Shown piece after piece: positions 1,323 through 56,083 of a stretch of 64,000 nucleotides of DNA. Location: positions 19,372 to 83,371 of the forward strand of contig JBBRBF010000002.1 of assembly GCA_038206105.1 (NCBI GenBank). Reading direction: 5' to 3'. Every line of letters starts with the position of its first letter. Position 1 is the first letter of the stretch. The translations under genes were made by a program, and so were the position numbers. The DNA comes from Actinomycetales bacterium. Lineage in GTDB: Bacteria; Actinomycetota; Actinomycetes; Actinomycetales; JBBRBF01. The notes below the pieces were generated by a model that was not told where the DNA came from, did not search any database, and was given only the letters and a program-made list of their open reading frames with translations.

Positions 1323-1386
1323 CCCACCCCTCGCGGTGATCAAGGAGCTCGCGCACCCACCCACGCGGTGATCAAGGAACTCGCGT
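1323..1386 (+). repeat. Two tandem 32-bp units of the CGGTGATCA repeat family (AAGGA subfamily)
   Basis: The units are cccaccccTCGCGGTGATCAAGGAGCTCGCGc and acccacccACGCGGTGATCAAGGAACTCGCGt. They start 2 nt after the SIS gene stop and end 70 nt upstream of the CDF transporter start. Confidence 0.9.
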
Positions 1387-8006: not shown

Positions 8007-8022
8007 TCGAACACCGGTTCGA
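8007..8022 (+). promoter_or_regulatory. LexA (SOS) box
   Basis: TCGAACaccgGTTCGA is a perfect match to the actinobacterial consensus TCGAAC-N4-GTTCGA. It lies 34 nt upstream of the LysM gene ATG, with an extra GTTCGA half-site abutting at 8001-8006. Confidence 0.7.
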
Positions 8023-8055: not shown

Positions 8056-8496
8056 ATGAGCGCACTGCCGATCGAGGACCTGCTCCCGCACACGGGTCGA
8101 CGCGACGCCACGGTGATCCCCTTCCCGGGGGGAGTGGTGGTCGTGCCGGCAGGGCCTGCCCGGTCCGGGAAGCCGTCGCGGGTGCGATCCCACCGGATGG
8201 ACCTGCGGATCACGCGACGGGGGCGGCTGCTGCTGACCTCCCTCGTGCTCGCCGCGGTCCTGGGTCTGGCCACCACGCTGGCCGCGGGCTCTGCGCTCGC
8301 GGGCAGCGGGTCGGCGCCGGAGCCGACCCGGACCGTCGTCGTGTTGCCCGGTCAGACCCTGCACGAGGTTGCCGCGACCGTCCCCGGCGGCGGCGACGTC
8401 CGCGACGTCGCGGCCGTCATCCGCGACGTGAACGGCTTGGAGTTCTCCGCGCTCGTCGCCGGACAGCAGTTGCGGGTCCCCCTGACCACCGACTGA
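8056..8496 (+). CDS. Single-pass membrane protein with C-terminal LysM domain (YneA/ChiZ-like candidate SOS division inhibitor)
   Basis: AGGAGG sits 5 nt before ATG 8056. The protein has a TM segment (LLLTSLVLAAVLGLATTLAAG) and a LysM-like C-terminus (VVVLPGQTLHEVAA...VAGQQLRVP). Confidence 0.8.
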   Translation: MSALPIEDLLPHTGRRDATVIPFPGGVVVVPAGPARSGKPSRVRSHRMDLRITRRGRLLLTSLVLAAVLGLATTLAAGSALAGSGSAPEPTRTVVVLPGQTLHEVAATVPGGGDVRDVAAVIRDVNGLEFSALVAGQQLRVPLTTD

Positions 8497-11500: not shown

Positions 11501-11902
11501 GTCCGGGGCCGGGTGGACCGGCTCGAGCGCGACGCCGAGGGTCGGCTGGTCGTCGTCGACCTCAAGACCGGCAGCAGCGCGCCCAAGGACGGCGATGTGG
11601 CGCGGCACGCCCAGCTCGGCGTCTACCAGGTGGTGGTCGCCGAGGGCGGGCTCGGCCCCGGCGCGACGAGCGGTGGCGCCGCCCTGGTCCAGCTCGGCGG
11701 CACCCGCAAAGCGGCGAAGGAGCAGCGGCAGCGCGCCCTCGCCGACGACGCCGACCCGGGCTGGGCGCGACAGGTGCTCGACACCGCCGCGGACGGCATG
11801 GCGGCCGACCGGTTCGCCGCGGTCGGCAACGACCTGTGCCGCCGCTGCCCGGTGCGCGCCGCGTGCCCGCTGCAGCCCGAGGGCCGGCAGGTGACGTCGT
11901 GA
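8585..11902 (+). CDS. adnA: UvrD/Rep-like helicase-nuclease subunit AdnA
   Basis: SF1 helicase motifs are followed by a C-terminal PD-(D/E)XK nuclease (VVVDLKTG) and four Cys (HRC...CRRCPVRAAC). It is followed with a 4-bp overlap by its paralogue. The exact start is uncertain (GTG 8585 or 8603). Confidence 0.85.
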   Translation: MRGERDVTWRADDPGTPRLVRPAATGVVPLRLDADQRRVVAHGRGDGPLVVRGAPGTGRTTALVESVAARVERDAADPARVLVLAPTRRAAAQLRDRVSARLARTVAEPGVRTPHAYAFSLLRRLALAAGEPPPRLLAGPEQDRVLADLLAGHAAGEGRPVAWPPSVPAETRGLRGFRDELRDLLMRALERGLAPADLRAAGRRHGRPEWVAGAAVLGEYLEVTALATPNGYDPAGIVDQAGQRLADDEDLLATEVRRWQLVAVDDHHESTEATARLLDLLVGGGGDLLVTGDPDATTQSFRGGDPRLVAAAEHRYRRADGAPAEVVVLRTPHRQAAEPVDLVALFRRVSERIGSAGSVAHRAAVPATPPAGSATRPSPLPSPLPSFLAASSVEAHVLRSATQEGAFVAHLLRSEHLLGGRPWSTMAVVVRSAGRTAALRRAFAATGVPVASPAAEVPVRDEPAVRPLRTALRLVLRPDGAEPQDAVALLTSPLGGTDALGLRRLRRRLLAEERAGGGSRASDDLLVEALADPVRTATLDRRVAAPAARVARVLAAGRHAAAEPGATAETVLWALWQATGLAGAWRQQALVGGPAGSRADRDLDAVLALFDAAARFVDRLPGQRPEAFLDHLDAQDVPADTLAEHAPDDDAVQLLTAAGSAGREWDVVVVAGLQDGVWPDTRLRGSLLGSTDLVDVLAGRGDDPAGARRQVLDDELRLLHVAVSRARQRVVATAVRDADERPSPFLDLVAPYRPAPGNTAAGGAGSESSSGSGSEERPETVVPRAVTLPALVAELRQVLLVADGERDGSGRAVDPGRRRTAAAALARLAAAGVPGAGPSQWYALAPLSDDGPLRAEGEPVHVSPSRVEAFHRCGLRWLLETNGGATSSGTSQGVGTLVHDVAAEHPDADADTLLAEVDRRWPSLGLGDGWVSARERGRAHAMVRRLAGYTAGSDREVAGTEVEVSTPVGRAVVRGRVDRLERDAEGRLVVVDLKTGSSAPKDGDVARHAQLGVYQVVVAEGGLGPGATSGGAALVQLGGTRKAAKEQRQRALADDADPGWARQVLDTAADGMAADRFAAVGNDLCRRCPVRAACPLQPEGRQVTS

Positions 11903-14900: not shown

Positions 14901-15333
14901 CGTGGACCTCGACGACCTGCCCGGCGCCGGGGACGAGGGCGCCGCGCCGGACGACGAGCTGGCCCGGCTGCAGCGGGTGTTCCTCGCCTCGGAGTGGGCC
15001 ACCCGCGACCCGGTCGCCGTGGAGGTGGCGGTCGAGACGCCCGTCGACGGCGTGGTGCTGCGGGGTCGGATCGACGCCGTCTTCCGACGCGAGGACGGCG
15101 GGTGGGACGTCGTGGACTGGAAGACCGGCCAGCCACCGACCGGTGCGCGGCGCCGAGCGGTCGTCGTCCAGCTCGCGGTGTACCGGCTGGCCTGGGCGCG
15201 GCTGCGCGGCGTCGGCGTCGAGCAGGTCAGCGCGGCGTTCTTCTACGCCTCCACCGGCGAGACGGTGCGTCCCGCCGACGTCGGCGACGAGGCGACGCTG
15301 GGCGCCCTCGTCCGCGGCGTCCCGGCGTCCTGA
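11899..15333 (+). CDS. adnB: UvrD/Rep-like helicase-nuclease subunit AdnB
   Basis: The GTG overlaps the adnA stop (GTGA). It has a canonical Walker A (AGAGSGKTE), UvrD motifs and a C-terminal RecB-type nuclease (WDVVDWKTG). Confidence 0.88.
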   Translation: MTAGPGTAGPSSAAIAAALGRPAPTAEQQAVIEAPLEPLLVVAGAGSGKTETMASRVVWLVAGGHVAPADVLGLTFTRKAAGGLADRVRARLRGLARTGLLTGEVAEALGSAGEPAVSTYHSYAASVVGDHGLRVGVEPRSRLLGEAACWQLASSVVETWDGDLGGLTKAPATVVDAVLALSAECAEHLVDPTGIAQLAEQVERRVCSLPATDAGGAPGRPSRDVGLALAALAERAQLVPLLRRYAERKREAGALDFGDQVALAARIAEQVPEVGAAERARARVVLLDEYQDTSHAQLVLLRAVFGGGHPVTAVGDPHQSIYGWRGASAGTLEAFGGQFLQRDGAPARRLGLATSWRNDHALLAAANTLAAPLRRASTIEVAPLAARPGAGAGAVHVDWHATTGDEVADLAARFAAVWHADGTGAGPRRSMAVLCRKRSQLAAVEAGLRGAGLPVEVVGLGGLLTRPEVVDVVSTLQVLHDPSRGDALVRLLTGARWRIGPRDLEVLAAWSAALAARDRGRRAGPPGDEARTAADARTAADTGTAADTGTAVADVADVADVADVADERSLVDALDDPPPPGWVAGHGRGLSPVGQARLAELATMLRGLRSRVSAPLPELVVAVERALGLDVEVAARPGVPPGTARAQLDAFTDVAASFAAATGTPSLGGFCAWLGAAAERERGLEAGDDSGVDDVALAHDDLEPSRTAVQVLTVHAAKGLEWDVVAVPGMVEGSFPARAGGRASAQDASSGWLSGLGTLPYPLRGDRDALPVLDWRGPGDQKALESERRAFRLACGRHEVAEERRIAYVAATRARELLLLSGSWWRDGSTPATASRFLTELVGAAGEGDLPGVDATGFVAGVASPPAEGEANPSLAQPPTATWPLDPLAGRRPAVEAAAAAVASAGAAAEGADTLGEGGDLGEWRREVELLLAERDARSHGPGQVRLPEHLSASRLVDLAADPAGFARSLRRPVPVEPRPQTRRGTAFHAWIEARFRAETLVDLDDLPGAGDEGAAPDDELARLQRVFLASEWATRDPVAVEVAVETPVDGVVLRGRIDAVFRREDGGWDVVDWKTGQPPTGARRRAVVVQLAVYRLAWARLRGVGVEQVSAAFFYASTGETVRPADVGDEATLGALVRGVPAS
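13486..13596 (+). repeat. In-frame tandem repeats inside adnB (18-bp x4, then 9-bp x4)
   Basis: gcccggaccgctgccgac x2 and accgggaccgctgccgac x2 (variants), then gtSgccgac x4. These encode ARTAADARTAADTGTAADTGTAVADVADVADVADVAD. Confidence 0.9.
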
Positions 15334-32331: not shown

Positions 32332-32814
32332 GTGGCCAAGAGCGCGCAGAAGGACCGCACCGTCGTCGCGAGCAACCGCAAGGCCCGGCACGACTACCAC
32401 ATCGAGGACGTCGTCGAGGCGGGCCTCGTGCTCACCGGTACCGAGGTGAAGTCGCTGCGGCAGGGGCGGGCGTCTCTCGTGGACGGCTTCGCCTCGATCG
32501 ACGGCGGTGAGGCGTGGCTGGAGAACGTGCACATCCCGGAGTACACCGAGGGCACCTGGACCAACCACGCTGCCCGCCGCAAGCGCAAGCTGCTGCTGCA
32601 CCGCGAGGAGATCGACAAGCTCGCCGGCAAGGTGCGCGAGTCGGGCCGCACCATCGTGCCGCTGCAGCTGTACTTCCGCGACGGCCGGGCGAAGGTCGAG
32701 ATCGCGCTGGCGCGCGGCAAGCGCGAGTACGACAAGCGCCAGACGCTCCGGGAGCGCCAGGACACCCGCGAGGCGCAGCGCGCGATGTCCCTGCGTTCCC
32801 GACCCGGCGACTGA
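32332..32814 (+). CDS. smpB: SsrA-binding protein
   Basis: [38 protein letters not shown]...[20 protein letters not shown]. Confidence 0.95.
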
Positions 32815-32856
32815 CCCCACCGCACCCCTGCGTTGATCATGCACGTCCGGTACGCC
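32815..32856 (+). repeat. Single copy of the CGGTGATCA repeat family (ATGCAC subfamily)
   Basis: ccccaccgcacccctGCGTTGATCATGCACGTCCGGTACGCC starts at the first base after the smpB stop. Confidence 0.85.
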
Positions 32857-32914
32857 CGGCAGTGTCCGGTGGGCCAGCGGGAATGAGGACAGCTCGGCCG
32901 GTGCTGCGGGCCCC

Positions 32915-33838
32915 ATGCGCGCAGCCTCCTTCACCGAGTACGGACCCGCCGACGTCCTGCGGGTCGCCGACCTGCCCGACCCCCTTCCCGGCCCCGACGG
33001 TGTCGTCGTCCGGGTCCGCGCGGCGGGGGTGAACCCGGTCGACGCCAAGATCCGCGCCGGCTACCTCGACGGCGCGTTCCCGGCTGCCTTCCCGATCGTG
33101 ACGGGCTGGGACGTCGCCGGCGTCGTCGAGGCCGTCGGCCCCGCGGTGAGCGTCTATGCGGTCGGTGACGAGGTCCTCGGCTACGTCCGCAAGGACCACG
33201 TCCAGCACGGCACCGTCGCCGAGCTCGTCCGCGCCGACGTGCGGCACCTGGCGCCCAAGCCCGCCGGGGTGTCCTTCGAGGACGCCGGTGCGCTCCCGCT
33301 GGCCGGGCTGACCGCACTGCAGGCCCTCGACGCGGCGGGGGTCGCCGGCGGCGACACCGTGCTCGTGCACGCCGCCTCGGGCGGGGTCGGGGCCTTCGCT
33401 GTCCAGCTCGCAGCCGCTCGCGGCGCCCGTGTGATCGGCACGGCCGGCGAGAGCAACCACGACTTCGTCCGCGAGCTGGGCGCCGAGCCGGTCACCTACG
33501 GCGACGGCCTGGCCGACCGGGTCCGGGCGCTGGCCCCGGACGGCGTGGACGCCGCGATCGACCTCGTCGGCGGGGACGCCCTCGACGTCTCGTTCGAGGT
33601 CGTCGGCGACGCCTCCCGGGTGGCCTCGGTGACCGACGCCGCCAGCGTGCTGGAGCGCGGCGGCGCGTACGTCTTCGTGCGCCCCGACAGTGCGCAGATC
33701 GCCGAGCTCGCTGCGATGGTGGCCGATGGCCGGCTGCGGGTCACGGTCTCGCGCACCTTCGGCCTGGACGAGGTCGCCGACGCGCACCGTCACTCCGAGT
33801 CGGGTCATGTGCGCGGCAAGGTCGTCGTCGTCCCCTGA
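32915..33838 (+). CDS. NADPH:quinone oxidoreductase / zinc-type alcohol dehydrogenase superfamily (MDR)
   Basis: MRAASFTEYGPADVLRVADLPDP...VRAAGVNPVDAKIR...VLVHAASGGVGAFAVQLA...GKVVVVP. Confidence 0.88.
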   Translation: MRAASFTEYGPADVLRVADLPDPLPGPDGVVVRVRAAGVNPVDAKIRAGYLDGAFPAAFPIVTGWDVAGVVEAVGPAVSVYAVGDEVLGYVRKDHVQHGTVAELVRADVRHLAPKPAGVSFEDAGALPLAGLTALQALDAAGVAGGDTVLVHAASGGVGAFAVQLAAARGARVIGTAGESNHDFVRELGAEPVTYGDGLADRVRALAPDGVDAAIDLVGGDALDVSFEVVGDASRVASVTDAASVLERGGAYVFVRPDSAQIAELAAMVADGRLRVTVSRTFGLDEVADAHRHSESGHVRGKVVVVP

Positions 33839-33909
33839 CGGCGGGCCGCCGGGAATGCCCGGGCACGCCGAGGCGCTTTCGCGGTAGCCTGAGGGCGTAC
33901 AACTCAACA

Positions 33910-34276
33910 GGGGGTGACAGGTTTCGACGTCGGATGTCGAACCAGGGGAAGCGGGTCGAGGAGGCAGCGTGATCTCGTCAACCATCGCTGCAAACCACAG
34001 GTGCCGATTCCAAGCGCACCGACTTCGCCCTCGCCGCCTGAGCGAGGAGTAGAGGTCCGTCAGCCCGGGAGTGCTCCCGGTCCGGTAGCTGGCGTCATCT
34101 AGGGAGCCACTGCTCCTGGCCCTCGTCATCGGGGTCAGGGGGACACTCAGGTGACTGGGCCCGGCAGCGACACGTCTGCTAGATCGCTGGGGCCGAGAAA
34201 AACCGCAGCAGGCTGCACCCGGAGAAGCCCTGGAGGTACGACGACGGACGCGGGTTCGATTCCCGCCACCTCCACC
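33910..34276 (+). ncRNA. ssrA: tmRNA (transfer-messenger RNA)
   Basis: The 5' GGGGGTGACAGGTTTCGAC pairs with the 3' CACCTCC, including a G3:U wobble. The T-arm is GCGGGTTCGATTCCCGC and the 3' end reads ...CCACCTCCACC. The tag ORF 34003-34041 encodes ADSKRTDFALAA*. Confidence 0.93.
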
Positions 34277-34285
34277 CCTGTCCGA

Positions 34286-39920: not shown

Positions 39921-40678
39921 CCGAAGGGGTCGAGCCGGTCACACCCGAGCCGCCGCGCGACGTCGGCCGCACGGTCTTCGCGCAGCGGTGGGAGTCCCTG
40001 GCGTTCCTGCACTGGGCCGTCGAGCCCGACCGTGTCGCGCCGCTGTTGCCACCGGGGGTGCGGCCCGACGTCCTGGACGGCTCCACCTACGTGGGTCTGA
40101 TCCCGTTCGTGATGCGCCGCACCGCGCTGCTCGGCGGTCCGGTGGTGCCGTACCTCGGCTCGTTCTGCGAGACCAACGTCCGGCTGTACGCCGTTGACGC
40201 CGCCGGCAGACGCAGCGTGGTCTTCGTCTCGCTGGAGGCCTCCCGGCTGGCGCCGGTGCTCGTGGCGCGGGCGATGGGGCTGCCGTACCTCTGGGCCCGG
40301 ATGCGCTACCGGCGCGACGACGACGTGGTCTGCTACACGACCCGGCGCCGCTGGCCAGGGCCCCGGGGCGCGCGCAGCGACGTCACCGTGCGGGTCGGGC
40401 AGGTCGTCGCGGCCGGGCCGCTGGAGCACTTCCTCACTGCCCGGTGGGGGCTGCACACCGCTGCGCGCCACGGACCGCTCTACTGGCCGAACGAGCACGA
40501 CCGTTGGCCGCTGCGCGCCGCCCGGTTGGAGCACCTGGACGACGAGCTGCTCGCCGTCGCGGGGTTCGGCGACCTCGCCGCCCGTGAGCCCGACAGCGTG
40601 CTGTTCTCGGCAGGGGTCGACGTCCGCTTCGGCCCCCCCACCCCAACCCCGCACCCCCACCCCACCCCTTCGCGGTGA
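39917..40678 (+). CDS. DUF2071 (YqjF-like) domain protein
   Basis: FAQRWESLAFLHWAVEP...YVGLIPFVMR...FCETNVRLY. The last ~15 codons and the TGA stop lie inside the repeat element at 40662-40736. Confidence 0.85.
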   Translation: MTEGVEPVTPEPPRDVGRTVFAQRWESLAFLHWAVEPDRVAPLLPPGVRPDVLDGSTYVGLIPFVMRRTALLGGPVVPYLGSFCETNVRLYAVDAAGRRSVVFVSLEASRLAPVLVARAMGLPYLWARMRYRRDDDVVCYTTRRRWPGPRGARSDVTVRVGQVVAAGPLEHFLTARWGLHTAARHGPLYWPNEHDRWPLRAARLEHLDDELLAVAGFGDLAAREPDSVLFSAGVDVRFGPPTPTPHPHPTPSR

Positions 40679-40736
40679 TCATGCACTTCGGGTACGCAGG
40701 CCGTACCCGAGCTGCATGATCACCGCGAAGGGGTGG
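40662..40736. repeat. 75-bp near-perfect palindrome made of two inverted copies of the CGGTGATCA repeat
   Basis: CCACCCCTTCGCGGTGATCATGCA cttCGGGTACG cagg c CGTACCCGagc TGCATGATCACCGCGAAGGGGTGG. The arms are 24 bp perfect plus 8 bp perfect with one mismatch zone. It lies between convergent genes. Confidence 0.95.
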
Positions 40737-40754
40737 GTCAGGGTGGGGTGGTGG

Positions 40755-41879
40755 TCAGGCGGGGTCGAACGTGGCGAGAGCGTGGTCGGTCGGCGCGGGG
40801 ACGACGACCCGCCCGCCGGACGGCACCGCCAGCGTGTGCGGCGCGAGGGCCCGTAGCAGCGACCCGTCGGCCAGGCGGACGTGGTGCAGCACCGACCCGC
40901 CCCGGAACTCGGTGCGCACCACCGTGCCCACGGCGCCCCCGGCCGCCGCGGCGTCCGCAGCGAGGTCGCTGCCCTCGGCGAGCACGGTCAGGTCGTGGGG
41001 CCGCGTCATCACGTCGACCGGCCCGGTGCCGTTCCCCACGACGGGGAGCGCCCCGAGCGCGGTGCGGGCGCTGGCGCCGTCCCACTGCCCGGGGACGAAG
41101 TCGGCCTCGCCGAGGAACGTCGCGACGAACCGGCTGGCGGGGGAGTGGAACACCTGCGAGGGCGTGCCGACCTGCTCGATCCGGCCGGAGCGCAGCACCG
41201 CGACGCGGTCCCCGACCGCGAGCGCCTCGTCCTGGTCGTGGGTGACGAGGACGACGGTCGCGTCGGCGGCGCGCAGCACCGCCACCGCCTCGACCCGCAC
41301 GTGGGCGGCGAGCCCCCGGTCGAGGTGGGAGAACGGCTCGTCGAGCAACACCACGGACGGGCGGGGGGCCAGGGCGCGGGCCAGGGCGACGCGCTGCTGC
41401 TCGCCGCCGGAGAGCTCGTGGGGGAACCGGCCGGACAGGTGCGACAGCCCGACGAGGTCGAGCACCTCCGCGACGCGCTCGTCGCGCTCGCCGGCGCCGC
41501 GACGCGCCACGCGGCCCAGCCCGAACGCGACGTTGCCGGCGACGCTGAGGTGCGGGAAGAGCGCGAGGTCCTGGAACACCACCGCCACGCCGCGCTTCTC
41601 CGGCGGCACGAAGACGCCCGGCCCGGCGACCTCGCGACCGGCCAGGCGCACGCGGCCTCCGTCCACACCGACGAGCCCGGCGACGGTCCGCAGCAGCGTG
41701 GACTTGCCGCACCCGCTGGGTCCGACGACGGCGAGCATCTCGCCGCGGGAGACGGTCAGGCTCACGTCGTCCAGTGCCGTCGTCGCGCCATAGCGCTTGG
41801 TGACGTGGTCGAGGTCGAGCAGGGCGTGCCGCATCGTGCTGGGCACGGCCGGGACGAGCGCGTCGGTCCTGGTGGTCAC
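40755..41879 (-). CDS. Fe(3+)/polyamine-type ABC importer ATP-binding protein
   Basis: [27 protein letters not shown] and LLDEPFSHLD, with a C-terminal TOBE-like domain. The GTG start overlaps the permease stop. Confidence 0.9.
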   Translation of the reverse strand: MTTRTDALVPAVPSTMRHALLDLDHVTKRYGATTALDDVSLTVSRGEMLAVVGPSGCGKSTLLRTVAGLVGVDGGRVRLAGREVAGPGVFVPPEKRGVAVVFQDLALFPHLSVAGNVAFGLGRVARRGAGERDERVAEVLDLVGLSHLSGRFPHELSGGEQQRVALARALAPRPSVVLLDEPFSHLDRGLAAHVRVEAVAVLRAADATVVLVTHDQDEALAVGDRVAVLRSGRIEQVGTPSQVFHSPASRFVATFLGEADFVPGQWDGASARTALGALPVVGNGTGPVDVMTRPHDLTVLAEGSDLAADAAAAGGAVGTVVRTEFRGGSVLHHVRLADGSLLRALAPHTLAVPSGGRVVVPAPTDHALATFDPA

Positions 41880-43700: not shown

Positions 43701-44702
43701 TCACTCGTAGCCTGCTCGCGCCATCAGCTCGACCGCGTCGGGGTTGAGCGCGCCGTACGCGGCGGCGTCGACCTCCTCGGCGCGGAAGTCCTCGAAGTCC
43801 GCGATCACGGGCACCGGCGGCACGTCGGGGTTCACCGGGTACTCGAAGTTGCCGCCGACGAACGCGTCCTGGCCGTCGGTGGCGAGCCACTCCAGCAGCT
43901 GCTGCGCCAGGTCGGGGTCGTCGGCGCCGTCGACCACGCCGGCCCCGGAGATGTTCACGTGCGTGCCCGTCGTCTCCTGGTTCGCCCAGAACAGGGACAC
44001 CGGCAGCTCGGGGTCGTCGGCGAGCTCGCGGGCCAGGTAGTAGTGGTTCACGACGCCGACGTCGCAGCGTCCGCTGGCGATGTTGTCGATGATCTCGACG
44101 TCGTTGTTGAAGATCTCGGCGTTGTCGGCCCAGCCGCGCACCACCCGCTGGGCCTCGGCCTCGCCGTCGGTGGTGATCATCGACGCGACGAGCGACTGCG
44201 TGTAGGTCGCGGTCGACTGCCGCAGGCACAGGCGCCCGGCCCAGCGCGGGTCGGCGAGGTCCTCGTAGGTGGACAGCTCCGCCGGGTCGACGCGGTCGGG
44301 GGAGTAGACGATGGTGCGGGCTCGCCGGGCCAGCCCGAACCAGCGGTCCTGAGGGTCGCGCAGGTTCTCCGGTACGGCGGCGTCCAGGACGTCGGAGCGC
44401 AGCGGCTGGAACACGCCCTGCTCGGCGGCGAGGGCGAGGTTTCCGGCGTCGACGGTCATGTAGACGTCGGCGAGGGTGTCCTCGCCCTCCGCCTCGATCC
44501 GTTCGCGCAGCTCGGCGTCCGAGCCGTAGAGGAACTCGACCTGGACGCCGGTCTCCTCGTTGAACTTCGTGAAGGCCTGCTCCAGGTCGTAGTGCCGAGC
44601 CGAGTAGACCCGTACGACCTGGTCGTCGCCGACGACGGTGCAGCCGCTCGCGACGAGCGCCAGGCTCGTCACGACGGCCGCGGTCCGCAGCGCTCGCCTC
44701 AC
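43701..44702 (-). CDS. Fe(3+) ABC transporter substrate-binding lipoprotein
   Basis: The lipobox is in VRRALRTAAVVTSLALVASGC, followed by VRVYSARHYDLEQAFTKFNEETG... The GTG start overlaps the upstream stop (GTGA). The longer 44816 start is less likely. Confidence 0.82.
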   Translation of the reverse strand: MRRALRTAAVVTSLALVASGCTVVGDDQVVRVYSARHYDLEQAFTKFNEETGVQVEFLYGSDAELRERIEAEGEDTLADVYMTVDAGNLALAAEQGVFQPLRSDVLDAAVPENLRDPQDRWFGLARRARTIVYSPDRVDPAELSTYEDLADPRWAGRLCLRQSTATYTQSLVASMITTDGEAEAQRVVRGWADNAEIFNNDVEIIDNIASGRCDVGVVNHYYLARELADDPELPVSLFWANQETTGTHVNISGAGVVDGADDPDLAQQLLEWLATDGQDAFVGGNFEYPVNPDVPPVPVIADFEDFRAEEVDAAAYGALNPDAVELMARAGYE

Positions 44703-45133
44703 GGCGTCCCCGTCACGGCCGGCTCGGAGGACTCGGCGGGTGCGGACGTCGCCGACGGCTCCGACCCGCTCTCCGACCCGCTGTCCGAGCCGGTGCCCGA
44801 ACCGTCGGTGGGGCACGCCGTGGCCTCGGAGCCGCTGGCCTCGGAGCCGCTGGCCTCGGAGCCGCTGGCGGCGTCGGTGGTCTCGGAGCCGCTGGCGGCG
44901 TCGGTGGTCTCGGTGGTCTCGGAGACGCTGGCGGCGTCGGTGGTCTCGGTGGCCTCGGAGCCGCTGGCGCTCGTGGCACAGGCGTCGTTCTCGAGCTCGC
45001 GGACACCGGCGCCGTCGTCCTGGCCGCAGGCGGACACCGCGAGCAGCAGGCCGAGGGCGGCTGCGGCGGCAGGACGCCGCAGCGTCGAGGACAGGGTGCG
45101 GTGGGTGGGCATCGGAGCCTTCCGGGTGCTCAT
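44699..45133 (-). CDS. Acidic Ser/Thr/Glu-rich repeat lipoprotein (hypothetical)
   Basis: Signal and lipobox are RRPAAAAALGLLLAVSAC. The mature part is low-complexity (SGSEATETTDAAS / SGSEA repeats). ATG 45133 overlaps the upstream stop (ATGA); alternative ATG at 45112. Confidence 0.55.
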   Translation of the reverse strand: MSTRKAPMPTHRTLSSTLRRPAAAAALGLLLAVSACGQDDGAGVRELENDACATSASGSEATETTDAASVSETTETTDAASGSETTDAASGSEASGSEASGSEATACPTDGSGTGSDSGSESGSEPSATSAPAESSEPAVTGTP

Positions 45134-46677
45134 CGGGTCAGGACGGTCTGGTCGACGCACCCCTCGGTGATCAAGGACTCGGATTCCTCGATCACCGAGG
45201 GGGTGGGGGGAGGGGCGGCAGTCAGCGGGGTGGCAGGGCGGCGGCCGGCGCTGCGGGCACCCAGCGTCAGGAGTGCCAGCAGCGCCGCGGTCCACACGGC
45301 GTGCAGCGCCCAGGTGGCCGTCCCCGGCTCGCGGTAGTCCGGCAGGGCCAGGCGCAGCGCCGCGAGCGGCCAGGGCGCCGCGACGTCCGGTGCCCCGACC
45401 CAGGTGAGGTCGCCGCGCAGGCCCGCGGTGAGCACCCACGCGCTCACGAGCAGTCCGGCGGCCGCCAGCGGGGCGCCCACCGCCGCCGCCACCCGCCGCT
45501 CGGGACGGCGCAGCTCTGCGAGCCACGCGGTGACGGCGAGCACCGCCAGGGGCAGCACGACGACGACCTGCCGGCCGGGCCACCAGTACCCGTGCATCGT
45601 CAGCGCCACGAACGTCGCGGTCAGCCAGCCGGCCACCACCGGGGCGAGCAGCGCCGAGGCGACCAGAGGCCTCCGCCGCGCGGAGGCGGCGAGCGCGCCG
45701 AGGGCCGGCACGGCCAGCAGCCACACGGGAGCCCAGGCGAGCAGCCCGAAGTCCCGGTCGGCGAGCAGCCCGACGAGCCGGGTGCTGCGCCCCAGCAGGT
45801 CGGGAGCGAAGCCGACGGCGCCGATGTCGCCGGACGCCTGGAAGTGGTCGCCGCTGGCGTACGCGGTCCACCCCCCGTACAGGGCGCGGTGGACGACCAG
45901 CCACGCCGCGCCGGACGCCGCGAGCGCACCGACGACGACGGCCGCCGTCCGGCGCTGCCCGCCGCGCCAGGCGGACACGATGCCCACGGCGGCCAGCGCC
46001 GCGGCGACCGGCACGTACTTCACGGCCAGCCAGGGCAGCGCGCTGACGGCGACGACCAGACCCAGCGACCGCGCGGCCGACCAGGGGTGCCCGGCGTTCG
46101 CGCCCGGGGCCGCGCCCGCGTCGCCAGCCCCCGGGCGGGCCGGCAGCAGCACCGCCACGGCCGCGAGCACGACGAGCGCCGCGGGCAGCTCGGGGTAGAC
46201 CTGCTGGCCGTACACGACGAGGGGGGCACTCACACCGGCGACGCCCGCCAGGAGGGCGGCCGAGCCGGGGCCGGTGTCGAACCGGGTGCCGGCGAGCCAC
46301 GTCGTCAGGGCCGCGACGGCTCCGGCGAGCACCGCCAGCAGCGCCTTGGCGGCGACCCACCCACCGAGCCCGACGGCGGGTGCCAGCAGCACCGGCAGCA
46401 GGGGGTCGTGCGGGCTGACCTGCCGGCTGTCGGCGCCCACCTCGGTCTGTGTGGGCAGGGTCGCGGCGTGGTACTGCGACGCCCTGCCGGCAGCCAGCTC
46501 GTCGGCGACGTCGAGGTCGCCGTCCTCCCACAGGCTCGTGGCCGTCAGCAGGTACTGCGGCTCGTCCACGGCAGCCCGCGCACCGTCGGTGGCCGCCACG
46601 CCGATACCCAACGCGGCCGCCACGGCGACCACGACGCCGGCCAGCAGCGCCGCGGACGCCAGGCGCCGTCGGCTCAC
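45130..46677 (-). CDS. GT-C fold polyprenyl-phosphate-dependent glycosyltransferase (ArnT/PMT-like membrane protein)
   Basis: About 515 aa and polytopic. The first-loop acidic motif is VDEPQYLLTATSLWEDGDLDVADE. The GTG start overlaps the epimerase stop (GTGA). Confidence 0.7.
   Translation of the reverse strand: MSRRRLASAALLAGVVVAVAAALGIGVAATDGARAAVDEPQYLLTATSLWEDGDLDVADELAAGRASQYHAATLPTQTEVGADSRQVSPHDPLLPVLLAPAVGLGGWVAAKALLAVLAGAVAALTTWLAGTRFDTGPGSAALLAGVAGVSAPLVVYGQQVYPELPAALVVLAAVAVLLPARPGAGDAGAAPGANAGHPWSAARSLGLVVAVSALPWLAVKYVPVAAALAAVGIVSAWRGGQRRTAAVVVGALAASGAAWLVVHRALYGGWTAYASGDHFQASGDIGAVGFAPDLLGRSTRLVGLLADRDFGLLAWAPVWLLAVPALGALAASARRRPLVASALLAPVVAGWLTATFVALTMHGYWWPGRQVVVVLPLAVLAVTAWLAELRRPERRVAAAVGAPLAAAGLLVSAWVLTAGLRGDLTWVGAPDVAAPWPLAALRLALPDYREPGTATWALHAVWTAALLALLTLGARSAGRRPATPLTAAPPPTPSVIEESESLITEGCVDQTVLTR
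45160..45202. repeat. Inverted pair of CGGTGATCA repeats (AAGGA subfamily) forming an 18-bp-stem hairpin
   Basis: CCCCTCGGTGATCAAGGA-ctcggat-TCCTCGATCACCGAGGGG, with 17/18 positions paired. It lies inside the last ~25 codons of the GT-C gene. Confidence 0.9.
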
Positions 46678-52034: not shown

Positions 52035-52616
52035 ATGGACGACGCGGGGTCGGCGCCGGACGGCGGGCGGCTGGTGGGGCGGCTGCTGGTCGCCACGCCG
52101 CAGCTCGTCCACCCGACGTTCCGTCGCACCGTCGTGCTGCTGCTCGACCACGGCGAGGACGGCGCCCTGGGCGTCGTCGTGAACCGGCCGACAGAGGTCG
52201 ACGTCGACGCGGTGCTGCCGGCGTGGCAGCCGTTCGTGACGGGTCCGGGCCGGCTGTTCAACGGCGGGCCGGTGGCGCTCGACACGGCCCTGGGGCTGGC
52301 GACGGTGCCGGGGGACGACGCCGAGCCGATGGGGGTGCGCAAGGTCTTCGGGGCGCTCGGCCTGGTGGACCTCGACGCACCGCCGGAGGTCGTCGTGCCC
52401 GAGCTCTCGGGCCTGCGGATCTTCGCAGGCTACGCCGGGTGGTCGGCGGGCCAGCTCGAGGGCGAGATCGCCGAGGGGTCCTGGTACGTCGTCGACGCCG
52501 AGGCCCGTGACGCGTTCACCGGGGAGCCGCAGGACCTGTGGGGGCAGGTGCTCCGGCGTCAGGGCGGCGACCTCGCCTTCGTGGCCTCGTTCCCCGACGA
52601 CCCGACGATGAACTGA
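52035..52616 (+). CDS. YqgE/AlgH family protein (UPF0301)
   Basis: LLVATPQLVHPTFRRTVVLLLDHGEDGALGVVVNRP...FNGGPV...FAGYAGWSAGQLEGEI..GSWYV. Confidence 0.88.
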   Translation: MDDAGSAPDGGRLVGRLLVATPQLVHPTFRRTVVLLLDHGEDGALGVVVNRPTEVDVDAVLPAWQPFVTGPGRLFNGGPVALDTALGLATVPGDDAEPMGVRKVFGALGLVDLDAPPEVVVPELSGLRIFAGYAGWSAGQLEGEIAEGSWYVVDAEARDAFTGEPQDLWGQVLRRQGGDLAFVASFPDDPTMN

Positions 52617-52618
52617 GA

Positions 52619-52743
52619 CCCCCCGTCGGTGATCATGCACCTCGGCCCCCACCCTCCACGGTGATCATGCACCTCGGGTACGCCCCCGCCCCCCGACGGC
52701 TCCCGACGGCCCCCCACGGTGATCATGCACGTCAGGTACGCCG
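52619..52743 (+). repeat. Three direct copies of the CGGTGATCA repeat (ATGCAC subfamily)
   Basis: CGGTGATCATGCAC occurs at 52627, 52659 and 52717 (spacings 32 and 58 bp). Each copy is preceded by a C-tract; copies 2 and 3 extend to (C/G)TC(G/A)GGTACGCC. The array starts 3 nt after the yqgE stop. Confidence 0.95.
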
Positions 52744-52768
52744 CGTGGTCGCCGGTCGGTGCGCGCCG

Positions 52769-53623
52769 TCAGGTGGGGTCGTCGAGGCCGAAGGGCAGCG
52801 CGCCCAGGGTCCGGTCCCGCTCCTGGCGTGACGCCCGCTCGCGCAGCAGCCGCACCGCGTCGCGGCGGCGCCGTTCCGCGGTGACCGCCGCGAGGAACGC
52901 CTCCGGGGGCGTCCCCGGAGGCGGCGCGGGAGCCACGAGCGGGGCGACCTGCCCGGCGAGCTCGGCGGCGAGCTCCGCGCGGGCCCCCGGGTGCATCGCC
53001 GCGGCCCGGGCGTGCAGCTGGCGCACCGCCATCGCGGTGTCGTCGGGGAGCCGGCCGATGTCGGCGGACGCCGCCCAGGCGGTCAGCGGCGGCGGCATCT
53101 CCACCGGCGCGGGCCACTGCCGAGGGGCCCGCTCCCGCACGACGTAGGTACCGGCCAGCAGGTCACCGAGGCGCTTGCCCCTGGGGCTGGCCAGGGAGGT
53201 GATCACCGCCGGGCTGCCGAGCAGCAGCCACAGCTCGCCGAAGCCCACCAGGGCCCGGGGCAGCGCGTGCCGAAAGCGCACCGGGCCACCGTCGTCGCGC
53301 ACCACGCGCAGCCCGGCCGCGAGCTTTCCGGGCGAGCGCCCGCGGGTCGCCGTCTCCCAGGCGGTCGGGTAGCCGACGAGCACCGCCACCACGACGACGA
53401 GTCCGAGCGCAGCCGCCGCCGAGTCGTCCAGGCCCGTCCCCGCGCCGGCCACCGCCCAGAACAGGGCGACCAGGAGCGCCACCTGGATCACGACGTCGAG
53501 GGCGGCGCCGAGCATGCGGGTCGCGAACGACGCGGAGCGCAGGTCGAGCACGACCGCCTCACCGGTGACGAGGTCCCCGGGCAGCAGGCCCCGCTCGTCG
53601 GCCAGACCCGCCTCCTCGCGCAC
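52769..53623 (-). CDS. RDD family membrane protein
   Basis: TGEAVVLDLRSASFATRMLGAALD...SPGKLAAGLRVVRDDG...RLGDLLAGTYVVRER. Confidence 0.85.
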   Translation of the reverse strand: MREEAGLADERGLLPGDLVTGEAVVLDLRSASFATRMLGAALDVVIQVALLVALFWAVAGAGTGLDDSAAAALGLVVVVAVLVGYPTAWETATRGRSPGKLAAGLRVVRDDGGPVRFRHALPRALVGFGELWLLLGSPAVITSLASPRGKRLGDLLAGTYVVRERAPRQWPAPVEMPPPLTAWAASADIGRLPDDTAMAVRQLHARAAAMHPGARAELAAELAGQVAPLVAPAPPPGTPPEAFLAAVTAERRRRDAVRLLRERASRQERDRTLGALPFGLDDPT

Positions 53624-53718: not shown

Positions 53719-54714
53719 GTGGACCTCGACGCGTTCGTGGTGGTCAACTCCGGCGACTGGGACGAGCTCGAGCGTCTCGTCGCCCGACGCCGGCTCACCG
53801 GCGCCGAGGCCGACCGGCTCGTGCAGCTGTACCAGCGCACGGCGACGCACCTGTCCACGGTCCGCAGCGCCGCGCCCGACCCGGCGCTCGTCGCGCGGCT
53901 GTCGACCGTGGTCGCTCGCGCCCGGACGCGGCTCACCGGGGCGCACGAGCCGGTCTGGCGCGACGTCGTCCGGTTCTGGCTGGTCTCGTTCCCGGCGGCC
54001 CTGTACCGGGTGCGGTGGTGGACCGCGGGCGTCACCGTCGCGTTCCTCGTCGTGGCGTTCGCGGCCGGGGCGTGGGTCGTGGGCAGCCCCGAGGTGCAGG
54101 CGTCGCTGGGCAGCGACGCCGAGATCCGCCGCCTCGTCGACGTCGACTTCGAGTCGTACTACTCCCAGGCGCCGGCGTCCTCGTTCGCGGCGCAGGTCTG
54201 GACGAACAACGCGTGGGTCGCGGCGCAGGCGATCGCGTTCGGCATCACCGGCGTCTTCGTCGTCTTCGTGGTGTGGCAGAACGCGTTCAACGTCGGCCTG
54301 GTCGGCGGGCTGATGTGGGCGAACGACCGTGGCGACCTGTTCTTCGGCCTGATCCTGCCGCACGGCCTGCTCGAGCTGACCGCGGTCTTCGTCGCCTCCG
54401 GGACCGGGCTGGCGCTGTTCTGGGCGTGGGCGGCACCCGGCCCCCGGACCCGGTCCGCGGCGCTGGCGGAGGAGGGACGGGCGCTGGTGACCGTGGCCGT
54501 CGGGCTCGTGGCGGTGCTCGCCGTCTCCGGTGTCGTGGAGGCGTTCGTGACGCCCAGCCCGCTGCCGACGTGGGGTCGGATCGGCGTCGGCGTGGTCGTG
54601 CTCGCCCTCTTCCTCGCCTACGCGGGGGTGCTCGGACGGCGTGCGGCGCGGGCCGGCGAGACCGGCGACCTGCGCGCGGAGCTCGCCGGGGACGCCGCCA
54701 CCGTCACCGGCTGA
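53719..54714 (+). CDS. Stage II sporulation protein M-like (DUF95) membrane protein
   Basis: NNAWVAAQAIAFGITG...ILPHGLLELTAVFVASGTGL is characteristic of SpoIIM/DUF95. It is divergent from the RDD gene. Confidence 0.8.
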   Translation: MDLDAFVVVNSGDWDELERLVARRRLTGAEADRLVQLYQRTATHLSTVRSAAPDPALVARLSTVVARARTRLTGAHEPVWRDVVRFWLVSFPAALYRVRWWTAGVTVAFLVVAFAAGAWVVGSPEVQASLGSDAEIRRLVDVDFESYYSQAPASSFAAQVWTNNAWVAAQAIAFGITGVFVVFVVWQNAFNVGLVGGLMWANDRGDLFFGLILPHGLLELTAVFVASGTGLALFWAWAAPGPRTRSAALAEEGRALVTVAVGLVAVLAVSGVVEAFVTPSPLPTWGRIGVGVVVLALFLAYAGVLGRRAARAGETGDLRAELAGDAATVTG

Positions 54715-54790
54715 CGCGCGTCACGCGAGGGGGTTGAGCCCACAGGGACCGGCGGGACCCGACGTGCATGGTCCCCTGGTGGGGGCGGGG

Positions 54791-56083
54791 TCAGAGCCGG
54801 CCTGCGGCCTTGAGCGCCAGGTAGGCCGAGGCCAGCGCCGGCGGCAGCCCGGCGGGGTCCGCCTCGACCACCTCGGCACCGGCGCGCTGCAGGGCCCCGG
54901 CCAGGGCCGCCCGTTCGAGCGCCCCCCGCTCCGCGGCGGCCGCGTCGACGACCGCGTCCGCGCTGCCCCGTCGTGCGGCCATCTCGGTCAGCACCGGGTC
55001 GGACACCGACGCGACGAGCACGGTGTGCCGGGCGGCGAGCCGCGGCACCACCGGGAGCAGGCCCTCCTGGGCCGCGGCCGCCTCGAGCGGCGTCAGCAGC
55101 ACCACCAGCGACCGGCGCGAGGTGCGGGCCCGCACCTCGGCGGCGATCCGCAACCAGTCCGCCTCGACCAGGGCGGGGGCCAGCGGCGCCAGCGCCCCGA
55201 CGAGCGCGGGCAGCAGGTCCTTGCCGGCGCGGCCGGTGACGCGGGCCCGCACCTGACGGTCGACGGCCACGAGGTCGACCCGGTCACCAGCGCGCGAGGC
55301 CAGCGCGGCGAGCAGCAGGGCGGAGTCGATCGCCGCGTCCAGCCGCGGCTCGTCCCCGACGCGGGCCGCCGCCGTCCGCGACGTGTCGAGCACGATCAGC
55401 ACGCGGCGGTCGCGCTCCGGCCGCCACGTGCGCACGACGACCTGCTGCCGTCGTGCCGTCGCCCGCCAGTCGATCGAGCGGACGTCGTCCCCGTCCACGT
55501 ACTCGCGCAACGCGTCGAACTCCGTGCCCTGCCCGCGTTGGCGCACCGCGGACCGGCCGTCGATCTCCTGCAGCCGGGCGAGCAGACCGGGCAGGTGCCG
55601 CCGCGACGTGAACGGCGGCAGCACCCGCAGCCGGGCCGGCACGGGGATCGAGGCCTGCCGGGCGGCCAGGCCCAGAGGGCCCACCGCCCGCACCGTGACG
55701 CGGTCCGCGACCCGGTCGCCGCGTCGCGTCGGCACCAGGGTCGTGACGACCCGGCGGCGCTCCCCGGGCGGCACGTCGACGCGGTGACGCGGGTCGCGTG
55801 CCCCGGCCGACGGCTGCCACGCGTCACGCAGCACCCCCCGCAGCCGGCGCCGGCCCCCGTTGGCCACGGTCACCGAGCACGTCGCGGGCTCGCCGAGGCG
55901 CACCCGCCCCGGCACGTCCCGCGCCAGCGAGAGCGTCCGCGGTGACGCGGCCAGCGCCACGTCGAGCGCCAGTGCCACCAGCACCACCAGCGACCAGCCG
56001 AGGAGCCCGGCCCACCCGGGCACGAGCACGACGACCGGCAACCCGATCACCGCGAGCAGCACCGCCCGTCCGGTGATGGCCAC
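54791..56083 (-). CDS. DUF58 domain-containing protein
   Basis: EFDALREYVDGDDVRSIDWRATARRQQVVVRTW...VLIVLD is the typical DUF58 partner of MoxR. Confidence 0.85.
   Translation of the reverse strand: MAITGRAVLLAVIGLPVVVLVPGWAGLLGWSLVVLVALALDVALAASPRTLSLARDVPGRVRLGEPATCSVTVANGGRRRLRGVLRDAWQPSAGARDPRHRVDVPPGERRRVVTTLVPTRRGDRVADRVTVRAVGPLGLAARQASIPVPARLRVLPPFTSRRHLPGLLARLQEIDGRSAVRQRGQGTEFDALREYVDGDDVRSIDWRATARRQQVVVRTWRPERDRRVLIVLDTSRTAAARVGDEPRLDAAIDSALLLAALASRAGDRVDLVAVDRQVRARVTGRAGKDLLPALVGALAPLAPALVEADWLRIAAEVRARTSRRSLVVLLTPLEAAAAQEGLLPVVPRLAARHTVLVASVSDPVLTEMAARRGSADAVVDAAAAERGALERAALAGALQRAGAEVVEADPAGLPPALASAYLALKAAGRL

Follow-up and report, generated by a model that had tools for sequence, protein, structure and literature searches.

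Six loci with a common module

The 64-kb stretch of DNA analysed here as a whole (the window) contains three head-to-tail copies of a short module, with C-rich linkers, between two convergent genes. The array begins 3 nt past the stop codon of yqgE/algH (52035-52616) and ends 26 nt short of the stop codon of the RDD gene (52769-53623). The module is present at six loci in the window, whose neighbours are unrelated housekeeping genes:

1323..1385, plus strand: two head-to-tail type-B units, GGTGATCAAGGAGCTCGCG at 1335-1353 and GGTGATCAAGGAACTCGCG at 1367-1385
32815..32856, plus strand: C-tract (32815-32831) and one type-A unit, GTTGATCATGCACGTCCGGTACGCC (32832-32856)
40633..40754, unstranded: tail-to-tail (inverted) type-A dimer, units at 40674-40698 (plus) and 40700-40724 (minus)
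45155..45215, unstranded: tail-to-tail type-B dimer (CCCCTCGGTGATCAAGGA, loop, TCCTCGATCACCGAGGGG), then a G-tract
52619..52742, plus strand: three head-to-tail type-A units, at 52628-52645 (truncated), 52660-52684 and 52718-52742
54751..54790, minus strand: decayed sixth copy, reading TGA, CCCCGCCCCCACCA, GGGGACCATGCACGTCGGGTCCCGCC on that strand

Five of these loci were named by the original prediction and all five hold the element; the decayed copy is an addition. The prediction treated the copies as one and the same element. They do form one family, but it consists of two subtypes: type A (ATGCAC..GGTACGCC; 32.8, 40.7 and 52.6 kb) and type B (AAGGAGCTCGCG, the subtype that reads GGTGATCAAGGAGCTCGCG; 1.3 and 45.2 kb), which share the C-tract, GGTGATCA and a 32-bp period, and nothing else. 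Similarly, there are three units at 52.6 kb, as described, but the first is cut off after ...CTCGG; the start-to-start spacing is 32 and 58 bp. The 32-bp phase attributed to both tandem arrays is indeed shared (unit starts 1335/1367 and 52628/52660), and it recurs in the close relative L031.

Each unit consists of a C-tract, (T)CGC, and a sharply bounded, nearly invariant core of ~25-26 bp with the consensus GC[G/C]GTGATCATGCAC-N-TC-S-GGTACGC. The whole module, C-rich linker plus core, is ~40 bp long. The C-tract was said to precede every copy and is seen at all of them; at most loci it is 9-17 nt long, and in the array at 1323..1385 it forms the linker before each unit (CCCACCCCTCGC and CACCCACCCACGC, period 32 bp). 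The core holds an imperfect dyad GGTG-N6-CACC. Its conservation was profiled in 33 companion copies, none of which had been picked by the search pattern: positions 1-12 are conserved at 94-100% and positions 14-18 at 97-100%, and conservation falls away at -4 and +24. A core that is near-invariant while the linkers drift could reflect a host function rather than a mobile element.

With at most one mismatch, GGTGATCAWGSA has 12 matches in the window against 0.16 expected, a number reached in 0 of 100 shuffled sequences. Repeat-finding, run independently, recovered the family as D3, D18, I2 and I4. The earlier description of the element as packed with AT-containing palindromes holds for TGATCA, 9 of whose 16 copies in the window fall within it, but not for GAGCTC (1/41) or GGTACC (0/18).

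Placement, clusters and distribution

In the window the elements lie at gene 3' ends only. They occupy four of the nine convergent gaps, two of the 34 tandem gaps and none of the nine divergent gaps. The expected position just past same-strand stop codons was borne out: in five cases (1321, 32814, 52616, 40755 on the minus strand, 54791 on the minus strand) the C-tract starts 0-3 nt past TGA. Thus, the array at 1323..1385 begins 2 nt past the stop of the SIS-domain gene 134-1321, the element at 32815..32856 is directly 3' of the smpB stop (32812-32814), the right end of the 40.7-kb dimer adjoins the stop (40755-40757) of a minus-strand ABC ATPase gene, and the decayed copy directly follows the stop of the minus-strand DUF58 gene (54791-56062), in a convergent gap facing the SpoIIM-family gene 53719-54714. 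The 3' flanks of other genes in the window have no comparable C-richness; only 6 of ~50 genes carry the element. Every stop-proximal unit in the window lineage is sense-oriented with its C-tract abutting the stop codon, and the stop-proximal units of L031 and of the metagenome-assembled genome (MAG) L006 are likewise all sense. This sense-only, stop-abutting order exceeds what random insertion and purifying selection obviously predict, and could mean a host-selected function at the RNA level.

Two protein C-termini in the window are rewritten by the element and read as footprints of its insertion. A C-tract borders the 40.7-kb dimer on its left and a G-tract on its right. This left C-tract, together with the head of the unit, supplies the last ~13 codons of a DUF2071 gene and its stop. 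The stop, predicted to lie in the element, is the TGA inside GGTGATCA at 40676-40678, and the protein ends in ...FGPPTPTPHPHPTPSR, whereas its homologues end in ...FGPRRRV. The 45.2-kb dimer lies in the 3' tail of ORF 45130-46677, which encodes a membrane protein on the minus strand. This agrees with the coding 3' end assigned to the dimer earlier: the hairpin at 45160-45202 falls in the last ~25 codons (..PPPTPSVIEESESLITEGCVDQTVLTR before the stop), which are read from the type-B element, and the ORF runs through it after the codon-position GC signal fades. In L006, one gene likewise stops at the TGA of GGTGATCA.

The core was found in the window lineage, in metagenome Ga0081539 (18 contigs) and in two further MAGs of Actinobacteria, L006 and the Pseudonocardiaceae MAG L003. 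In ~100 kb (97 kb) of DNA sampled from relatives, among them Quadrisphaera and a Euzebyales MAG, the element is absent. Its distribution is patchy. The window and the Ga0081539 contigs share no synteny. Downstream of yqgE and DUF2071 the loci of relatives are not syntenic, and these regions are without the element. The orthologous smpB 3' region, where SmpB is 95% identical, provides the kind of presence/absence comparison that had been proposed: one unit follows the gene in the window and two in L031. This difference is a clean one-unit indel. Between the two genomes, identity is 92% in the unit core and 67% in the flanking intergenic DNA. Six of the nine matches in a pattern scan of genome contigs were discarded as chance or coding; three of the six lie in an apparent mraY, judged by eye from a conserved peptide motif. 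The tail TPSR before the stop of P0002 looks element-like, but the DNA reads CGCTGACCG where the contig ends.

The clusters in Ga0081539 hold 2-4 units. Their neighbouring pairs comprise 19 head-to-tail, 11 tail-to-tail and 10 head-to-head, and composite clusters (<- -> -> <-) occur in L012, L014 and L028. Head-to-tail spacing is exactly 42 bp in 12 of the 19 pairs and 52 bp in two; most head-to-head linkers measure 19-21 nt, and most tail-to-tail loops 0-5 nt. The linkers are fixed in length and variable in sequence. Together with the 32-bp spacing in the window and L031, this gives three classes (32, 42 and 52 bp) one helical turn apart; spacings of 39, 43, 46 and 58 bp, which are off-phase, occur too. 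All six TT[A/G]TCCACA 9-mers in 215 kb, which we take to be DnaA-box-like, fall inside element clusters; the window copies are without such linkers. Two placements in Ga0081539 differ from those in the window lineage: in L018 (6444-6510) the units lie between two minus-strand CoA-transferase genes, antisense to the operon, and in L025 head-to-head dimers lie between convergent genes.

Folding and comparison with known repeats

Neither single units nor tandem arrays fold better than shuffled sequences, whether as RNA or as DNA (z from -0.96 to +1.2); the 52.6-kb array (z = +0.9 on one strand and +1.2 on the other) has no structure. Folding is confined to inverted pairs, which in the window are the 40.7- and 45.2-kb dimers. 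The former has 51-nt arms, 82% complementary, and a hairpin dG of -93 kcal/mol. The lack of structure in the unit argues for recognition as double-stranded DNA. No intrinsic terminator-like sites (hairpin plus U-tract) were found at 52300-53000 and 40400-41000, and the tandem arrays have no U-tract. When the whole window was scanned with Rfam 15 at the gathering thresholds, tmRNA alone passed; E-value scans of two element loci yielded only sub-threshold matches to generic miRNA-precursor hairpins.

Several other identities were rejected. For a promoter, no sigma-70-like sites were found at 52300-53000 and 40400-41000. Three of the 19 G4-type motifs lie at element loci, and two of the six loci carry one, so a G-quadruplex is not a defining feature. 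A coding role (VIMHLGY peptide; 42 bp = 14 codons) was discarded because variation falls on first codon positions, no consistent frame is kept and copies lie on both strands. As a CRISPR-like array, the clusters would have 'spacers' of 17 nt and just 2-4 units, some of them inverted.

The family was claimed not to be a described one, and by sequence it has no match in Rfam 15 or in the phage, plasmid and viral collections and the literature searched. Plasmids and phages gave no significant blastn match to the 107-bp palindrome, pattern scans of viral contigs with both subtypes gave 0 matches, and in the literature, string searches with either orientation of the core brought up nothing but unrelated primers.

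By description, the closest actinobacterial analogue would be TRIT of Mycobacterium ('tuberculosis Rho-independent terminator'; Gardner et al. 2011, RNIE; PMC3152330). TRIT is a sequence-conserved palindrome at ~-8 of stop codons, has 147 copies in M. tuberculosis and is reported in Mycobacterium only; an extra factor has been proposed as necessary (PMC3152330). Both TRIT and the element are actinobacterial, high-copy, confined to one lineage, and conserved in sequence and not merely in structure. Both are tied to gene termini, often overlap the stop codon, and are bidirectional between convergent genes; the 40.7- and 45.2-kb dimers of the window match this behaviour exactly. However, TRIT is a palindromic hairpin, whereas the unit of the element is non-palindromic and occurs singly or in structureless head-to-tail arrays. 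As to placement, stop codons lie inside the element or 0-3 nt before it, and hairpins are formed only at 40.7 and 45.2 kb.

With the REPs, BIMEs and REPINs the element shares short (20-40 bp), high-copy extragenic units (PMC2817692, PMC3116915, PMC3733652). As in BIMEs, these form mosaic clusters in both orientations with few recurring linker types; in Ga0081539 the units are regularly spaced and alternate in orientation with recurrent linkers, and one linker type carries a DnaA-box-like site, the counterpart of the IHF site in BIME-1. As in REPINs, inverted doublets make long hairpins; as in REPs, there are occasional intragenic copies at gene ends, and the families are patchy and lineage-specific. 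However, the REP unit is imperfectly palindromic and carries a GTAG or CGTC tag, while the unit of the element has no stem-loop, and the tag is missing from the required position in the GC(G/C)GTGATCATGCACNTCSGGTACGC consensus (definition in PMC3733652). Head-to-tail dimers are described as absent or rare in REP families in the available part of the 2013 REP survey, where Actinobacteria are mentioned 0 times (PMC3733652), whereas this is the commonest arrangement of the element (19 of 40 pairs). REPs and REPINs of Proteobacteria are mobilised by RAYTs (PMC2817692, PMC3116915, PMC3733652). A RAYT/TnpA-REP gene, sought after the original prediction, did not emerge: no RAYT/HUH-Y motif was matched by regular expression in ORFs of the ~236 kb scanned. 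No transposase, RAYT or parent IS with these ends was found next to the copies, whose flanking genes are ordinary.

The tail-to-tail dimer at 40646-40752, with its 51-nt arms, resembles a MITE (Correia/NEMIS, ERIC) consisting of two TIRs and almost no interior. Insertion at gene ends with altered C-termini is a further likeness, and the inner TGATCA...TGATCA provides the 5'-TG...CA-3' ends that many DDE transposons have. However, no target-site duplication is visible around the element: the flanks continue the palindrome (CGCGG...CCGCG) with no direct repeat. Since the palindrome continues into the C/G tracts, the termini of the element are undefined, unlike those of a MITE. Also unlike MITEs, units are arranged head-to-head or head-to-tail as often as tail-to-tail, and there is no parent IS in the phage, plasmid and viral collections or beside the contig copies.

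Finally, MIRUs are actinobacterial intergenic head-to-tail repeats of 40-100 bp, oriented with respect to genes, overlapping stop codons and varying in copy number between strains. The difference of one versus two units between the window and L031 is, by description, MIRU-like. MIRUs lie between operon genes, contain small ORFs that couple translation, and form no inverted dimers; we know of no sequence similarity between them and the element.

Nature of the family

We consider the element to be a lineage-restricted, non-coding, non-autonomous dispersed repeat family of the REP/BIME/REPIN/MITE kind with an architecture of its own, and assign this reading a probability of about 0.55. Mosaic clustering, polymorphism in copy number and patchy occurrence agree with the REP/MITE-like nature suggested earlier, and the family, which has no match in the collections searched, behaves like a new relative of REP/BIME/MITE-type repeats. 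A sequence-specific protein acting in trans would recognise the core as double-stranded DNA; this could be a transposase/recombinase or a DNA-binding protein of the host. Modules may be copied into or beside gene 3' ends and then grow or shrink locally by unit-length duplication or deletion, which would account for head-to-tail arrays with fixed spacing and for dimers of both kinds, head-to-head and tail-to-tail. They would survive only where they do little harm, that is, past the last codons or replacing them, and above all between convergent genes. Tail-to-tail dimers would form very stable bidirectional hairpins, probably acting as transcription barriers or mRNA 3'-end stabilisers, so that inverted pairs may serve as terminator-type hairpins incidentally. 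For the window lineage, a contribution of the C-rich leader to factor-dependent termination is possible.

An alternative, which we regard as unlikely, is a host-selected 3'-end signal, that is, a TRIT-like or factor-dependent terminator module. Its RNA would consist of the stop codon, a C-rich, G-poor Rho-loading-like leader and the conserved box, which would act in termination or 3'-end processing through an RNA-binding or termination factor; in inverted pairs the signal would work in both directions. The C-tracts 0-3 nt past TGA in five window cases, unmatched in other 3' flanks, are in line with such a signal, as are the sense orientation of all stop-proximal units (window, L031, L006), the enrichment in convergent gaps with divergent gaps empty, the conservation of the core above adjoining intergenic DNA between relatives, and the TRIT precedent (PMC3152330). 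However, the antisense units of L018 and the head-to-head dimers between convergent genes of L025 do not fit it, and the tandem arrays have neither structure nor a U-tract. Typical Rho-loading regions are far longer than the 9-17 nt of the C-tract at most loci. With the element at only 6 of ~50 window genes, and sampled relatives entirely without it, this is not a general termination device.

Rather improbable, too, are arrays of binding sites for a chromosomal protein (nucleoid-associated, topoisomerase or replication-related), modelled on BIME-2 (gyrase) and BIME-1 (IHF). They would keep helical register at transcription-unit ends, where positive supercoils accumulate, and in one organism the linkers would also recruit DnaA. 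The spacings of 32, 42 and 52 bp (~3, 4 and 5 helical turns) with fixed-length, variable linkers, the imperfect dyad in an invariant core between drifting linkers, and the 6/6 DnaA-box-like 9-mers inside clusters point this way. So does the enrichment in convergent gaps; in mycobacteria, gyrase occupancy is higher between convergent genes (PMC5433769). However, the protein partner is putative only. Ancestral dimers, and not selection, could have set the spacing classes, and spacings of 39, 43, 46 and 58 bp fall out of phase. The patchy phylogeny is odd for a core chromosome-organising site, and the window copies are without the DnaA-box-like linker. This explanation overlaps the preferred one, a dispersed repeat family, as a transposase is also a DNA-binding protein.

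More doubtful still, the core and C-tract might not be selfish DNA but the cis-site of an actinobacterial system that is undescribed and spreads horizontally. A putative protein would bind phased arrays at transcription-unit ends and drive factor-dependent termination or the management of supercoils and replication. If so, gene ends would be 'marked' by a sequence-specific module and not by structure, the DnaA-box linkers would serve supercoil/replication management in one lineage, and the TRIT puzzle would extend beyond Mycobacterium.

The original prediction also considered pairing with the 16S rRNA 3' tail, GGUGAUC with the conserved GAUCACC, to hold or recouple ribosomes after termination; it was prompted by the complementarity of GGTGATC, and the sense units right past stops in the window and an ATG 5 nt past the would-be SD core of type A are compatible with it, but it is highly improbable, as the 7-bp duplex (-12.2 kcal/mol) is within background (-9.15 +/- 2.9; 16.5% of random 40-mers of this GC-rich DNA match or beat it), the antisense strand pairs equally well (-10 to -15 kcal/mol), CGTGATC replaces GGTGATC in half of the metagenome copies and in most companion copies (26/33), the smpB copy has GTTGATC (-5.5 kcal/mol), conservation spans ~26 bp unrelated to the anti-SD complement, Ga0081539 has antisense and head-to-head placements, and no consistent ORF follows the ATG, which type B lacks.

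To our knowledge, canonical intrinsic terminators are mostly missing from high-GC Actinobacteria, and REP-type repeats have hardly been described there. A dispersed repeat family, itself undescribed, that sits at stop codons, alters C-termini and differs in copy number among close relatives is relevant to the way these genomes define their gene ends. It misleads annotation by adding spurious Pro-, Thr- and His-rich extensions to C-termini, and strain typing gains VNTR-like markers from its varying copy number. The architecture, with a non-palindromic invariant core, helical-turn linkers and occurrence in distant lineages, predicts a specific DNA-binding protein or transposase. Finding this protein would help to decide whether TRIT-like gene-end repeats are parasites, terminators or both.

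The repeat family and its position at gene ends

The window is about 76% G+C. Allowing up to one mismatch, the motif GGTGATCAWGSA has 12 matches in it; shuffles of the window that preserve dinucleotides give an expectation of 0.16, and none of 100 reached 12. A de novo repeat search of the window found the family independently (repeats D3, D18, I2, I4). Inspection of the sequence showed the element, a C-tract followed by a core of about 26 bp, as originally predicted at all five loci. A sixth, decayed copy was found at 54751-54790 on the minus strand by a profile constructed from the units (nhmmer without filters). The copies form two types, which have in common the C-tract in front, a (T)CGC-GGTGATCA head and the predicted 32-bp tandem period.

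Types of the element in the window
Type A: GGTGATCATGCAC-N-TC-N-GGTACGCC; 32.8, 40.7 and 52.6 kb, and the decayed copy
Type B: GGTGATCAAGGAGCTCGCG; 1.3 and 45.2 kb

Genes were placed by the codon-position GC score and then checked with Pfam. Elements are present in four of nine convergent gaps (one of which, at 45.2 kb, rests on a doubtful ORF), two of 34 tandem gaps and none of nine divergent gaps. In five cases the C-tract begins 0-3 nt past the TGA of the same-strand gene: the SIS gene, smpB and yqgE/algH, for all of which this placement had been predicted, and the minus-strand ABC ATPase and DUF58 genes. C-rich 3' flanks of this sort are absent from other genes of the window.

The DUF2071 gene indeed stops inside the element, at the TGA within GGTGATCA. 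The protein ends in ...FGPPTPTPHPHPTPSR, whereas nine homologues end in ...FGPRRRV or similar, and thus its last ~13 residues are translated element. The DUF2071 homologue P0002 encoded on contig L030 (76% identity) ends in ...RTPSR*, as does the window protein; the DNA at this end (1055-1079) is CACCCCCTCACGCTGACCG, not the element head, and the contig terminates there. This tail may derive from a decayed element at the corresponding site, or the likeness may be a coincidence. The copy at 45160, predicted to lie inside a coding 3' end, is read through by the ORF 45130-46677 (minus strand, membrane protein), whose codon-position GC signal fades near 45240 and which past this point runs through the type-B hairpin (..PPPTPSVIEESESLITEGCVDQTVLTR*). 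For the plus-strand ORF 44592-45170, too, the stop would be the TGA of GGTGATCA. The interval that separates the element-tailed ORF from the solute-binding-protein gene (43701-44702, minus strand) contains closely packed tandem repeats with periods of 9, 15 and 27 nt (44821-44972, GGAGCCGCTGGCCTC...), a stretch whose coding frame is ambiguous.

Neither single units nor head-to-tail arrays form secondary structure as RNA or DNA (folding z about 0 for isolated units, +0.9 and +1.2 for the two strands of the 52.6-kb array). Folding is limited to inverted pairs, since these are built as inverted repeats.

Folding of inverted pairs
40640-40760: dG -93.4 kcal/mol, z = -10.5
45150-45215: z = -3.6

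Neither sigma-70-like promoters nor terminators consisting of a hairpin and a T-run were predicted at the elements. In an Rfam 15 scan no family matched the element, which had not been recognised in the original prediction either; tmRNA alone passed within the window, and the palindrome produced only sub-threshold matches to generic miRNA hairpins. G-quadruplex-type runs (at least four G3+ tracts, located on the complement of the C-tract strand) flank units at two loci (40633-40668, 40730-40748, 52683-52715); they make up 3 of the window's 19 motifs of this type.

Copies in other genomes

The nearest named SmpB homologues come from Quadrisphaera, Kineosporiaceae and Thalassiella (~80-84% identity), which points to a Kineosporiales-like actinobacterium. 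A closer relative is L031 (ENA ERZ25039476), with 95% SmpB identity and synteny upstream of smpB. As the proposed comparison of orthologous intergenic regions demonstrates, unit number differs: smpB is followed by one unit in the window and two tandem units (period 32 bp) in L031, a clean one-unit indel.

Identity between the window and L031
Unit core: 23/25 (92%)
smpB 3' coding end: 38/45 (84%)
C-tract: 12/17 (71%)
Flanking intergenic DNA: 38/57 (67%)

In the window (32332-34277), a zinc-type alcohol dehydrogenase gene (32915-33838) lies between smpB and the tmRNA gene (33910-34277); in L031 (10001-10803) the gene call after smpB is no more than an 88-aa ADH fragment, and genes further downstream are ordered differently. 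Samples from Quadrisphaera, a Euzebyales MAG and four yqgE-bearing relatives, ~100 kb (97 kb) altogether, contain no element, and none was found in collections of phage, plasmid and viral sequences.

When one genome per species was scanned, only two convincing carriers emerged. An uncultured Actinomycetota MAG (L006) has two direct copies plus a degenerate and an inverted one, located between the DUF2550 gene that follows atpC and the convergent cobalamin adenosyltransferase gene, which again stops at the TGA of GGTGATCA. In a Pseudonocardiaceae MAG (L003) a single copy is present, preceded by CCACCCC. Other matches were attributed to chance, some lying within apparent mraY coding sequence.

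The metagenome scan retrieved 18 contigs, all from Ga0081539 (72-77% GC). A profile search of these revealed clusters of 2-4 units in mixed orientations, with two head variants, GCGGTGATC and GCCGTGATC; the composite <- -> -> <- is repeated in contigs L012, L014 and L028.

Neighbouring units in Ga0081539
Head-to-tail: 19 pairs
Tail-to-tail: 11 pairs, loops mostly 0-5 nt
Head-to-head: 10 pairs, linkers mostly 19-21 nt

Head-to-tail spacing is exactly 42 bp in 12 of the 19 pairs and 52 bp in two, compared to 32 bp in the window and L031, and linker lengths step by roughly one helical turn. The 17-nt linkers of the 42-bp-spaced pairs differ in sequence (loose consensus CNCACCTGCANGAACGC). All six TT[A/G]TCCACA 9-mers in the 215 kb examined fall in cluster linkers, and none occurs in the window copies; they resemble the DnaA box.

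DnaA-box-like 9-mers (TTGTCCACA / TTATCCACA)
L018: 8299
L020: 6782, 6834
L021: 3212
L024: 1806
L025: 2234

Conservation was assessed on 33 companion copies that the search pattern had not selected: it is 94-100% at core positions 1-12 and 97-100% at positions 14-18, and falls off sharply at -4 and +24. The flanking genes are ordinary metabolic ones. The L018 cluster (6444-6510) is antisense between two co-directional CoA-transferase genes, and L025 has a head-to-head dimer between convergent genes; therefore orientation relative to transcription is not fixed in this organism.

Other features of the window

The sequence TCGAACACCGGTTCGA (8007-8022), ~35 nt upstream of ORF 8056-8496, matches the actinobacterial LexA/SOS-box consensus TCGAAC-N4-GTTCGA perfectly. 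After this ORF come two very large genes on the plus strand (8585-11902, 11989-15333), and this may be an SOS-regulated repair operon. The second large gene contains at least five copies of a 9-nt periodic repeat (13530-13604, GCCGACGTG/GCCGACGTC), probably encoding a short peptide repeat.

Nature of the element

The suggested REP/MITE-like origin holds in part. The element has the hallmarks of REP/BIME, REPIN and MITE repeats: many copies beside unrelated genes, units with discrete boundaries, clusters of mosaic structure, polymorphism in unit number, footprints left in the ends of genes, and a patchy, lineage-specific distribution in which distant lineages have one core in common. However, the unit is not palindromic and lacks the GTAG / CGTC tag of REPs, and head-to-tail dimers predominate, whereas they are rare in REP families (PMC3733652); it also differs from classical MITEs, as no target-site duplication is visible and no parent IS was found in the phage, plasmid and viral collections or the contigs examined. 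The nearest actinobacterial counterpart is TRIT of Mycobacterium, comprising 147 sequence-conserved palindromes that overlap stop codons, are bidirectional and genus-restricted, and for which an unidentified factor was suspected (PMC3152330). Unlike the element, TRIT is defined as a hairpin.

The invariant, non-palindromic core and the linkers, fixed in length but free in sequence, suggest that a specific protein recognises the core in its double-stranded form. This protein could be either a transposase, the repeat spreading selfishly, or a host factor, the repeat being a domesticated gene-end module. We favour, with a probability of about 0.55, a mobile, selfish repeat whose inverted dimers have incidental terminator or stabiliser effects. 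That the host has selected the element as a 3'-end signal seems unlikely, and that it forms a chromosomal protein-binding array marginally less likely. The suggested ribosomal role, pairing with the 16S rRNA 3' tail (taken as the conserved GGAUCACCUCCUUUCU, because the 16S gene is outside the window), is highly improbable: a unit pairs at -12.2 kcal/mol via the 7-bp GGUGAUC, but 16.5% of random 40-mers of window DNA do as well or better (mean -9.15 +/- 2.9 kcal/mol), values for the G-rich complementary strand are -7 to -15.5 kcal/mol, CGTGATC head variants exist, conservation spans 26 bp, and units are also placed antisense. This complementarity accounts for nothing that needs explanation.

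The family is real and apparently so far undescribed. It belongs to a well-known kind and by itself is no sign of a new mechanism; its interest lies mainly in annotation, in the biology of gene ends in actinobacteria and in the access it gives to the TRIT question.
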